DNA of 32,473 bases. It comes from a virus. Its lineage: Duplodnaviria; Heunggongvirae; Uroviricota; Caudoviricetes. Below the pieces are notes generated by a model that had not been told where the DNA came from, ran no database searches, and was given only the letters and a program-made list of their open reading frames with translations. Location of the stretch: IMG/VR virus record IMGVR_UViG_3300045988_153444; one strand, given 5' to 3'. A program made the position numbers and the translations under genes. Below are positions 29,363 through 29,580 of this stretch, piece by piece (within the stretch, counting starts at the first letter, position 1; the number at the start of each line of letters is the position of its first letter).

Positions 29363-29580
29363 CGCAGGCTTTGCCTGTGAATATGTTCGCCCTTGCAGCG
29401 AGCTAAAGCTCGCGCCGGTTCGAGTCGCTACGCTCAAATATACCTCCTCCGGCACTTGCCGGAGGCATGGAGCAGCCTGATCATCCTTTTCGAAACGGCG
29501 CGTTTCGAACTATACAAAATCAATTTATATAAGGCCGAAATAAGGCCTACGGCCGGGCTTTGCAGGAGGAAGGGGCGAGC
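29363..29580. other. GC-rich cluster of perfect hairpins (candidate single-strand initiation site or structured RNA)
   Basis: Read directly: caggc-tttg-cctg; gcgagc-taaa-gctcgc; cctccggca…tgccggagg; ttcgaaac-ggcgc-gtttcgaa; aggcc-gaaataa-ggcct. Confidence 0.3.

Follow-up and report, generated by a model that had tools for sequence, protein, structure and literature searches.

A covarying hairpin cluster beside the origin of an IncFII-type phage-plasmid as a candidate G4-type priming signal

What role might be played by a dense cluster of hairpins lying directly beside a plasmid-type replication origin in a viral genome? The question is raised by positions 29,363 to 29,580 of the Caudoviricetes record IMGVR_UViG_3300045988_153444, a DNA stretch of 32,473 nt (hereafter, the window, meaning the whole stretch analysed). 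The initial annotation of this region had proposed a single-strand initiation (ssi) site of the kind known as a G-site in IncFII-type replicons or, alternatively, a structured small RNA. The analysis reported here favours the first of these proposals on the grounds of position, covariation, strand signals, a CTG trinucleotide and a second block of sequence (block B): we put at roughly 60% the probability that the cluster is a G4-type, primase-dependent site, read on the minus strand, for leading-strand synthesis. This reading is preferred because the cluster lies downstream of repA and the origin (oriR), its stems covary, strand-specific signals pick out the leading-strand template, and three hairpins are followed by a CTG. 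The hairpins, their conservation, covariation and strand bias, the CTG and the link to repA and oriR are all directly observed.

Five perfect stem-loops are present between 29365 and 29548, in agreement with the initial annotation. Hairpin 0 (29363-29379; CGCAGGC ttt GCCTGTG, with a perfect core CAGGC ttt GCCTG at 29365-29377), hairpin I (29398-29413; GCGAGCT aa AGCTCGC), hairpin II (29446-29465; 9-bp stem, CCTCCGGCA ct TGCCGGAGG) and hairpin III (29489-29509; 9-bp stem with loop GCG, TTCGAAACG gcg CGTTTCGAA) are assigned to the minus strand, and a fifth hairpin (29532-29548; AGGCC gaaataa GGCCT) to neither. As had also been described, these GC-rich hairpins are embedded in AT-rich DNA, with 47–58 %GC inside the cluster against 24–35 %GC on either side. 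Three stems of at least 7 bp (7–9 bp) are observed where 0.11 are expected, a count reached by 0 of 2000 dinucleotide shuffles, and the summed stem pairs (35, against 8.7 expected) are attained in 5 of 2000. Elsewhere in the window, three such hairpins per 218 nt occur in one place only, at ~13.0 kb. Folding of 29355-29590 as single-stranded DNA (ssDNA) gives z-scores of -3.3 and -3.0 for the two strands, and for the minus strand of 29380-29520 the predicted fold, at -30.4 kcal/mol (z = -3.47, 0 of 200 shuffles), consists of three hairpins, the three stable stem-loops of a G4-type signal. Read 5' to 3', the minus strand carries hairpin III, hairpin II, a GCGTAGC motif, hairpin I, CTGCAAGGGCG, hairpin 0 and an AT-rich core.

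Among relatives at 98–99% identity, hairpins 0, I and II are unchanged and hairpin III differs in its loop alone. In sensitive BLAST searches, a segment of ~50 nt around hairpin I (29388-29435) is the only part common to ~160 other plasmids, from Klebsiella, Enterobacter, Serratia, Citrobacter and Yersinia hosts, in which the match lies 270–370 bp downstream of repA. We refer to hairpin I together with its invariant flanks as element A (29386-29422; minus strand 5'-CGAACCGGC[GCGAGC ttta GCTCGC]TGCAAGGGCG-3'). The flanks (CCGCCCTTGCAGCG ... CGCGCCGGTTCG) enclose a stem whose inner three pairs vary by lineage yet stay complementary. Next to element A, a conserved spacer, GTCGCTACGCTC (29424-29435, minus strand), holds GCGTAGC (29427-29433), an instance of the GCGNAGC family of mini-hairpin motifs (PMC13037366); the motif is not kept in all lineages, L003 having GCATAGC. 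Fetched loci are labelled here with L-numbers such as L003, L007 being plasmid R100 and L104 plasmid R64.

A pattern scan of one genome per species returned 73 loci, of which ~62 are genuine, all on Enterobacterales-type plasmid contigs; the ~10 matches in GC-rich non-enterobacterial genomes, which have neither the hairpin nor repA, were discarded as chance. In this large pattern-derived set the outer three stem pairs and the flanks are fixed by the search pattern itself, and their invariance is taken from the BLAST-derived alignments. Scanning of viral contigs added 16 loci, each adjoining an IncFII-family repA, and the idea that ssDNA phages use element A was rejected because all 16 are thus phage-plasmids. 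In 70 of the 83 fetched loci there is an IncFII-family repA upstream of the element and on its strand, at 276–636 bp (median 380), and 8 of the 13 loci lacking it end at the locus edge; in the window, the element lies 276 bp past the repA stop. A 91-nt query of the classical IncFII form found the element in at least 3,379 PLSDB records, where it is almost always unannotated ("none"). Copies also occur on very large contigs of Pantoea sp. BAV 3049 (L025/L063, 5.17 Mb) and Serratia sp. PL17 (L042, 1.8 Mb); these may represent either assembly joins or IncFII-type replicons that have integrated.

The stem of hairpin I is retained as a structure rather than as a sequence. Across 36 distinct sequences, with 35 distinct stems that all pair, 216 of 216 cells are paired (100%), three pairs change on both sides (GC/AU 19:17; AU/CG/GC 21:9:6), the covariation score is reached by 0 of 500 shuffles, and pairing falls to 20–64% when the partner is slid. 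That the region has no function, being either a chance cluster of palindromes or coding sequence, is scarcely credible at this point. A 123-codon open reading frame (ORF; 29393-29764, plus strand) does span the region, and the initial annotation had rightly doubted it: the ORF exists as a mechanical translation, with no Pfam match and with no annotation at this place in RefSeq relatives, and three close relatives have lost its frame to 1-nt deletions, located at two different sites, while in Yersinia phage vB_YpM_39 a 270-bp insertion interrupts it. A coding role was rejected on these grounds. With 0 of 2000 shuffles matching the hairpin count and the element present in at least 3,379 plasmids, conservation and covariation refute the absence of function. 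The vB_YpM_39 insertion (L087, ~2774-3042, corresponding to window position ~29653) is ~270 bp long, has ~32-nt terminal inverted repeats (GGGGTTGCACGCCGGAACCGCCGAAATTTCC...) and is flanked by a duplicated CCTATTAG; it resembles a miniature inverted-repeat transposable element, and a similar terminal sequence is found to the right of element A in L034.

The other hairpins show related behavior, except for the fifth: hairpins 0, I, II and III are conserved and the fifth is not. A counterpart of hairpin 0, varying in sequence, lies 7–13 nt left of element A in most lineages including R100, and among phage-plasmid relatives its inner triplet covaries (GGC/GCC, TTC/GAA, GCT/AGC, GAC/GTC). Hairpin II is present 18–46 nt right of hairpin I in every lineage, with many compensatory variants; L003, L042, L059 and L103 retain its stem with another loop, and its position is taken in other lineages by CCCNNCNC/GNGNNGGG hairpins that show compensatory changes. 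At the position of hairpin III, L003, L022, L042 and L058 have GCGAAAAG gcg CTTTTCGC, another stem around the same loop, and this swapped stem occurs in a lineage of Citrobacter, Serratia and Buttiauxella. In two close relatives (AAGCCCGAA, AAGGACGAA) the fifth hairpin has undergone substitutions that break it and are not compensated, and in other lineages it cannot be aligned; it probably has no function as a hairpin.

The same data bear on the possibility that the palindromes work as duplex DNA, either bound by a dimeric protein (be it a plasmid or phage regulator, a host factor or a partition protein) or serving as structural parts of oriR. Their very short loops (2–3 nt) are operator-like, and the invariance of the hairpin I flanks over 12–14 bp suggests sequence-specific recognition. 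Yet the hairpin I stem varies freely while complementarity is kept, and loop length and sequence vary as well, a pattern that marks a folded strand and not a duplex operator; no half-site is common to the five palindromes, and the plasmids that carry the element have unrelated accessory and partition genes. Moreover, the strand asymmetries described next would be meaningless in duplex DNA, and we consider a duplex site improbable.

Two signals distinguish the strands. In hairpin II, 15 distinct sequences have imperfect pairing that reads A·C on the plus strand and G·T on the minus strand, a single one has the reverse, and GNA/GNNA loops appear on the minus strand in 13 of 35 distinct hairpin I sequences and 12 of 39 distinct hairpin II sequences, against none on the plus strand. 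Loops of this type form extra-stable DNA hairpins and are found in the origin hairpins of phages G4, St-1 and alpha3 (PMC13037366). Because the wobbles favor it by 15 to 1 and the GNA/GNNA loops occur there only, the minus strand is indicated as the folded strand, and the sequence variation as a whole points to selection on hairpin structure in that strand.

These signals are relevant to a structured RNA as well, whether the small RNA of the initial annotation, a minus-strand transcript entering the origin from the right, or a set of terminators insulating the origin. Minus-strand G·U wobbles would fit RNA equally, fold stability is significant, and hairpin II on the minus strand is terminator-like, with an 8-bp stem followed by AGGTATATTT. 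GNA triloops, on the other hand, are typical of DNA hairpins and not of RNA (PMC13037366), and the plus-strand hairpins have no U-tracts. Searches of 29363-29580 against Rfam 15 were negative, both at the gathering threshold and at E-values up to 10, and neither strand has a promoter-like site directed into the region, the sole candidate (29702-29730, plus strand) facing away. Since the DNA to the right of the element differs wholly among plasmids, a conserved minus-strand promoter is also unlikely. The small-RNA alternative thus gains no support, and we regard an RNA of any of these kinds as just as improbable as a duplex binding site.

The surroundings of the cluster are those of a plasmid origin. 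The 701 bases around it are 95–100% identical to 59 non-mobilizable Escherichia plasmids, nearly all of 47–52 kb, and the hairpin region is 99% identical in three Yersinia phages (vB_YpM_39, 41 and 44). Because P2-like tail genes and a PF02387 RepA of the IncFII family lie on the same window, we identify it as a phage-plasmid with an IncFII-type replicon, belonging to an E. coli/Yersinia family of ~47 kb. The replication initiator gene repA (28136-29113, plus strand; PF02387, E = 1.2e-43) is annotated as RepA in the 59 near-identical plasmids. A perfect DnaA box, TTATCCACA (29257-29265, plus strand, read directly), lies ~145 bp past the repA stop and marks the left edge of an AT-rich origin core (29266-29362, no strand) of ~100 bp with 24–35 %GC and repeated TGCAAA(T) motifs. 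The hairpin cluster follows directly to the right of this core, ~250 bp downstream of repA. Many related loci have a DnaA box 135–205 bp to the left of the conserved hairpin, and R100 and R64 have one at the equivalent spot. The IncFII assignment already made in the initial annotation is therefore borne out by the PF02387 RepA, a downstream oriR with a nearby perfect DnaA box and a 24 %GC core, and an antisense structure upstream.

Site A, the candidate primase start, is a 5'-CTG-3' on the minus strand (29396-29398) located directly 3' of hairpins III, II and I, as in a G4-type signal, with its T opposite 29397; the predicted primer, 5'-AGCGAGCUAAAGCUCGCGCC..., would point rightward. This CTG is invariant in every homologue of the element A alignments. 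By analogy with R1 and R100, RepA and DnaA, the latter at the box at 29257-29265, would open the AT-rich core (29266-29362) and DnaB would be loaded. As the helicase moved rightward, the minus strand would become single-stranded and coated with SSB (the single-stranded DNA-binding protein), and hairpins III, II, I and 0 would refold, leaving a short stretch free of SSB. We infer that primase is the reader of this stretch and that the CTG of site A is its choice: from what is known of R1 and G4, DnaG would start a primer opposite the T of the CTG just 3' of hairpin I (29397), and Pol III would elongate this primer (5'-AGCGAGCUAAAG...) rightward as the leading strand of a unidirectional theta replication. 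Gene orientation and base composition offer weak evidence consistent with rightward unidirectional replication: the plus strand carries nearly all genes, and over the full length of the window its GC skew is +0.13. A search of the window for a Tus ter site found none.

A different class of ssi signal could occupy the same place, namely a PriA-recognized primosome assembly site of the phiX174 type or some other signal that loads a helicase or primosome. Any priming signal read on ssDNA would be compatible with the location, the strand bias and the covarying hairpins, and hairpin II has AAGCGG-like loops in several lineages (R100, pKPC_UVA01), AAGCGG being a hexamer that recurs in n'-type sites; we know of no sequence consensus that defines PriA sites. 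Against this class, two features are specific to DnaG-type signals: the invariant CTG at hairpin I, and block B in being nearly identical to microvirus primase starts. A PriA site would also be unneeded for the leading strand if RepA and DnaA load DnaB at oriR, which is how IncFII origins operate in R1. No stem of the cluster contains a DnaA box, and an ABC-type primosome site is disfavored for that reason. Overall, another ssi class seems unlikely, somewhat less so than the RNA and duplex explanations.

Several observations weigh against a G4-type primase site. The outer three pairs of hairpin I and its flanks are pre-set in the large set, and the covariation counts take in inherited changes. 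In the window itself, the minus-strand loop of hairpin I is TTTA and not GNNA. At site A the paired stem of hairpin I ends in the C of the CTG, leaving a spacing of 0 to -1 nt, and the predicted minus-strand fold can extend the hairpin I stem across the CTG. At the second candidate start, site B, the minus strand on the 5' side has no significant structure (z = 0.07), and block B varies among close relatives. Lastly, R100 lacks element A with no known harm, and neither site A nor site B lies at the position of the R1/R100 G-site, ~380–420 bp beyond oriR.

Site B, or block B (29553-29576, minus strand; GCCCCTTCCTCCTGCAAAGCCCGG), lies ~170 nt right of site A, and its CTG is complementary to 29563-29565. 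It matches 13 of 14 positions of G4 CCTACTGCAAAGCC, and its local alignment to hairpin I plus start of alpha3 scores 31, a value reached by 0 of 2000 shuffles. Only a 4-bp stem remnant (AAGG/CCTT) precedes its CTG, which could represent a second, weaker start or the remnant of one. Block B is retained in pKPC_UVA01, L003, L025, L055, L056, R100 and R64.

The complement of block B is GCTTTGCAGG, a motif whose recurrence had been noted in the initial annotation. The copies are real, exact at 18-27 and 29557-29566 and with one mismatch at 31305-31314; the link between them is probably not. The two outer copies belong to a duplicated promoter/leader module of ~100 bp (1-99 and 31284-31383; ATTTATATAAAAAG(T/C)GCTTT(G/A)CAGGTGGGAAAAAATTTCCTATG...CCGGAGA) that precedes genes starting at 100 and 31384, and in which GCTTTGCAGG provides a -35-like TTGCAG located 16–17 bp before a TATGAT -10 element. 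A similar reading is possible at 29557 (TTGCAG, 17 bp, TATCAA), but it was not returned by the promoter scan and is not conserved in other plasmids that keep block B. A functional link between block B and the duplicated module was consequently set aside, and the resemblance treated as unrelated or coincidental.

Element A is better conserved than the initiator encoded beside it. RepA proteins adjacent to the element share as little as 37% (pKPC_UVA01) and 25% (pRHBSTW-00486_2) identity with the window RepA, all within PF02387, and because the element is the better conserved of the two, its reader is likely a host factor and not RepA. We can tentatively extend this idea, at odds clearly short of even, to the proposal that element A (minus-strand flanks CGAACCGGC...TGCAAGGGCGG) is an undescribed host-factor recognition hairpin marking the true leading-strand start, right next to oriR, in most IncFII/IncI-family replicons, R1/R100, with its distal-only G-site, being an exception that lost it. 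Under this proposal, and with the same reserve, its range might span the Klebsiella IncFII(K) plasmids, Salmonella and Yersinia virulence plasmids, pKPC_UVA01 and the phage-plasmid family of the window. We found no published description of element A in the literature on the R1 G-site or on G4-type ssi signals, or by motif strings.

If the cluster is indeed a G4-type primase site, this region would set the start point and direction of DNA synthesis in this phage-plasmid, and the analysis would give a name to a ~45-nt hairpin motif that at least 3,379 enterobacterial plasmids carry without annotation, among them many IncFII-type resistance and virulence plasmids of clinical importance. A motif better conserved than the initiator would be a useful marker with which to locate IncFII-family origins and orient replication, and element A could be a common target for interference with plasmid replication. 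The same reading would further suggest that the arrangement typical of the family is not the one known from R1/R100.

Two further features flank the origin on its left. On the minus strand, 28143-28252 contains a 20-bp stem-loop (GAAGCCCGCAGAT ttat CTGCGGGCTTTTTGTTT) followed by a strong intrinsic terminator, folds as RNA at -69.7 kcal/mol (z = -9.3), and runs antisense to the annotated repA ORF over its first ~40 codons. Searches of 28143-28252 returned no Rfam family at the gathering threshold and no CopA match, only partial terminator-like matches; the RNA is probably the copy-number-control countertranscript of the replicon. Because this candidate overlaps the annotated 5' end of repA, the true repA start may lie downstream of 28136. 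Between the tail-fibre assembly gene and repA, the minus strand of 27106-27669 encodes a hexapeptide-repeat acetyltransferase (serine acetyltransferase in relatives), at the place of which Yersinia phage vB_YpM_39 has a DNA invertase (hin).

How, then, does this locus compare with known priming systems? In the G4 origin, three stem-loops are followed 3' by a CTG whose T is the priming start, and primase and SSB suffice for priming (PMC6783573). The G4 template, as read from a GenBank record that annotates primer and start, has hairpin I (GGACGGCGAAAGCCGCCGTCC), CTA, CTG and CAAAGCC, with the start at the T, and the alpha3 and St-1 template has GGAAGGCGTTAGCCGCCTTCC, CTC, CTG and CTAAGCCC. The minus strand of the window resembles the G4 oric template in presenting three stem-loops and then a 5'-CTG-3', and its start context CTGCAA(A/G)G is common to G4, alpha3 and St-1. 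Site by site, the likeness is uneven: site A continues as CTGCAAGG where G4 has CTGCAAAG, so that CTGCAA alone is common, whereas block B (TTCCTCCTGCAAAGCC) shows the similarity of a microvirus start block, with one mismatch in 16 to the G4/alpha3 consensus TCCCTMCTGCWAAGCC. Template-strand loops of the GNA/GNNA type are found both in relatives of the window and in G4, alpha3 and St-1. The short spacer of 2–3 nt between stem and CTG seen in G4, alpha3, St-1 and the R100 candidate is absent at both site A and site B, however, and hairpins I–III have no detectable homology to the G4, alpha3 and St-1 hairpins. Unlike microvirus stem-loop I, hairpin I of the window does not contain the GCGNNAGC/GCGNAGC mini-hairpin, and a GCGTAGC is located 14 nt 5' of hairpin I on the minus strand, within the spacer. 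Comparison of G4 oric with the plasmids by BLAST and local alignment found nothing alignable beyond the short start block, and the settings differ, the window element belonging to a double-stranded theta replicon beside a RepA/DnaA origin and the G4 signal to an ssDNA phage.

Hairpin priming signals with a mini-hairpin loop are also known in a plasmid origin, as ssiA and ssiB of the IncQ plasmid RSF1010 (PMC13037366). These differ from the window element in being read by a plasmid primase, RepB', in being paired on opposite strands and in sharing no sequence similarity with it; no primase gene lies beside the window element.

Another close parallel is the G-site of R1, a close relative of R100, which has reportedly been defined experimentally and is said to lie ~380–420 bp beyond oriR, past two ter sites. 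The role proposed here for the window cluster is the same, that of a primase-only start for the leading strand. The IncFII G-site parallel drawn in the initial annotation thus applies to the type of site and to the replicon, but neither to the position seen in R1/R100 nor to the R100 G-site hairpin, of which the window has no homologue. R100 belongs to the same replicon family (PF02387 RepA, DnaA box, AT-rich oriR) and also has hairpins 0 and II. It further shares block B, at L007 6389-6400 (GGTCTGGCAGGG, CAG at 6396-6398), with both the strand and the side of oriR being those seen in the window. No copy of element A was found in R100 (0 matches with up to 3 mismatches), the gap falling exactly where Klebsiella and Yersinia IncFII plasmids have it. 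Instead, the R100 minus strand has a G4-like hairpin, CCGGCGTAAGCCGG, followed by TACTG (L007 6431-6449), and this candidate hairpin is absent from the window. We take the R100 block B and TACTG hairpin to lie 384 and 419 bp beyond the end of oriR on the basis of R1 coordinates, which fits the distance of ~380–400 bp downstream reported for the R1 G-site. Compared with the R100 region ~380–450 bp beyond oriR (GGTCTGGCAGGG plus hairpin CCGGCTTACGCCGG), the window thus has block B in common, lacks the hairpin part and differs in position, its sites A and B lying ~35 nt and ~200 nt beyond the AT-rich core. Two ter-like sites lie between oriR and the distal G-site candidate in R100, whereas the window has none; those of R100 are at L007 6075-6093 and 6204-6230, in opposite orientation. 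Tus ter-like sites (TAGTTACAACA) are also seen 55–65 bp right of the conserved hairpin, past hairpin II, in L004, L005, L009 and many classical IncFII loci.

R64 (IncI1) offers a further comparison. Right of its DnaA box, at L104 1800-1880, a divergent copy of element A with a bulged stem can be recognized by eye (CGCTTGCAGCGGCCAAGGCCCGC), followed by an IncFII-type hairpin II, a likeness likewise judged by eye. At L104 2190-2270, R64 has a region nearly identical to the distal G-site region of R100, and a G4-type ssi has reportedly been described for the IncI1 origin region (R64/ColIb-P9). Taken together, these comparisons indicate a family with a proximal element (element A) and a distal element (block B plus hairpins), of which R100 would keep the distal one only and the window both the proximal one and, from the distal one, the start block, and L056 and R64 appear to have both elements; priming modules seem to be common to IncI and IncF replicons. 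Set beside these systems, both the cluster and its replicon belong to known kinds, the cluster being expected beside an IncFII origin, and what is new is its core: a very widespread, unannotated and strongly constrained hairpin absent from textbook R1/R100.

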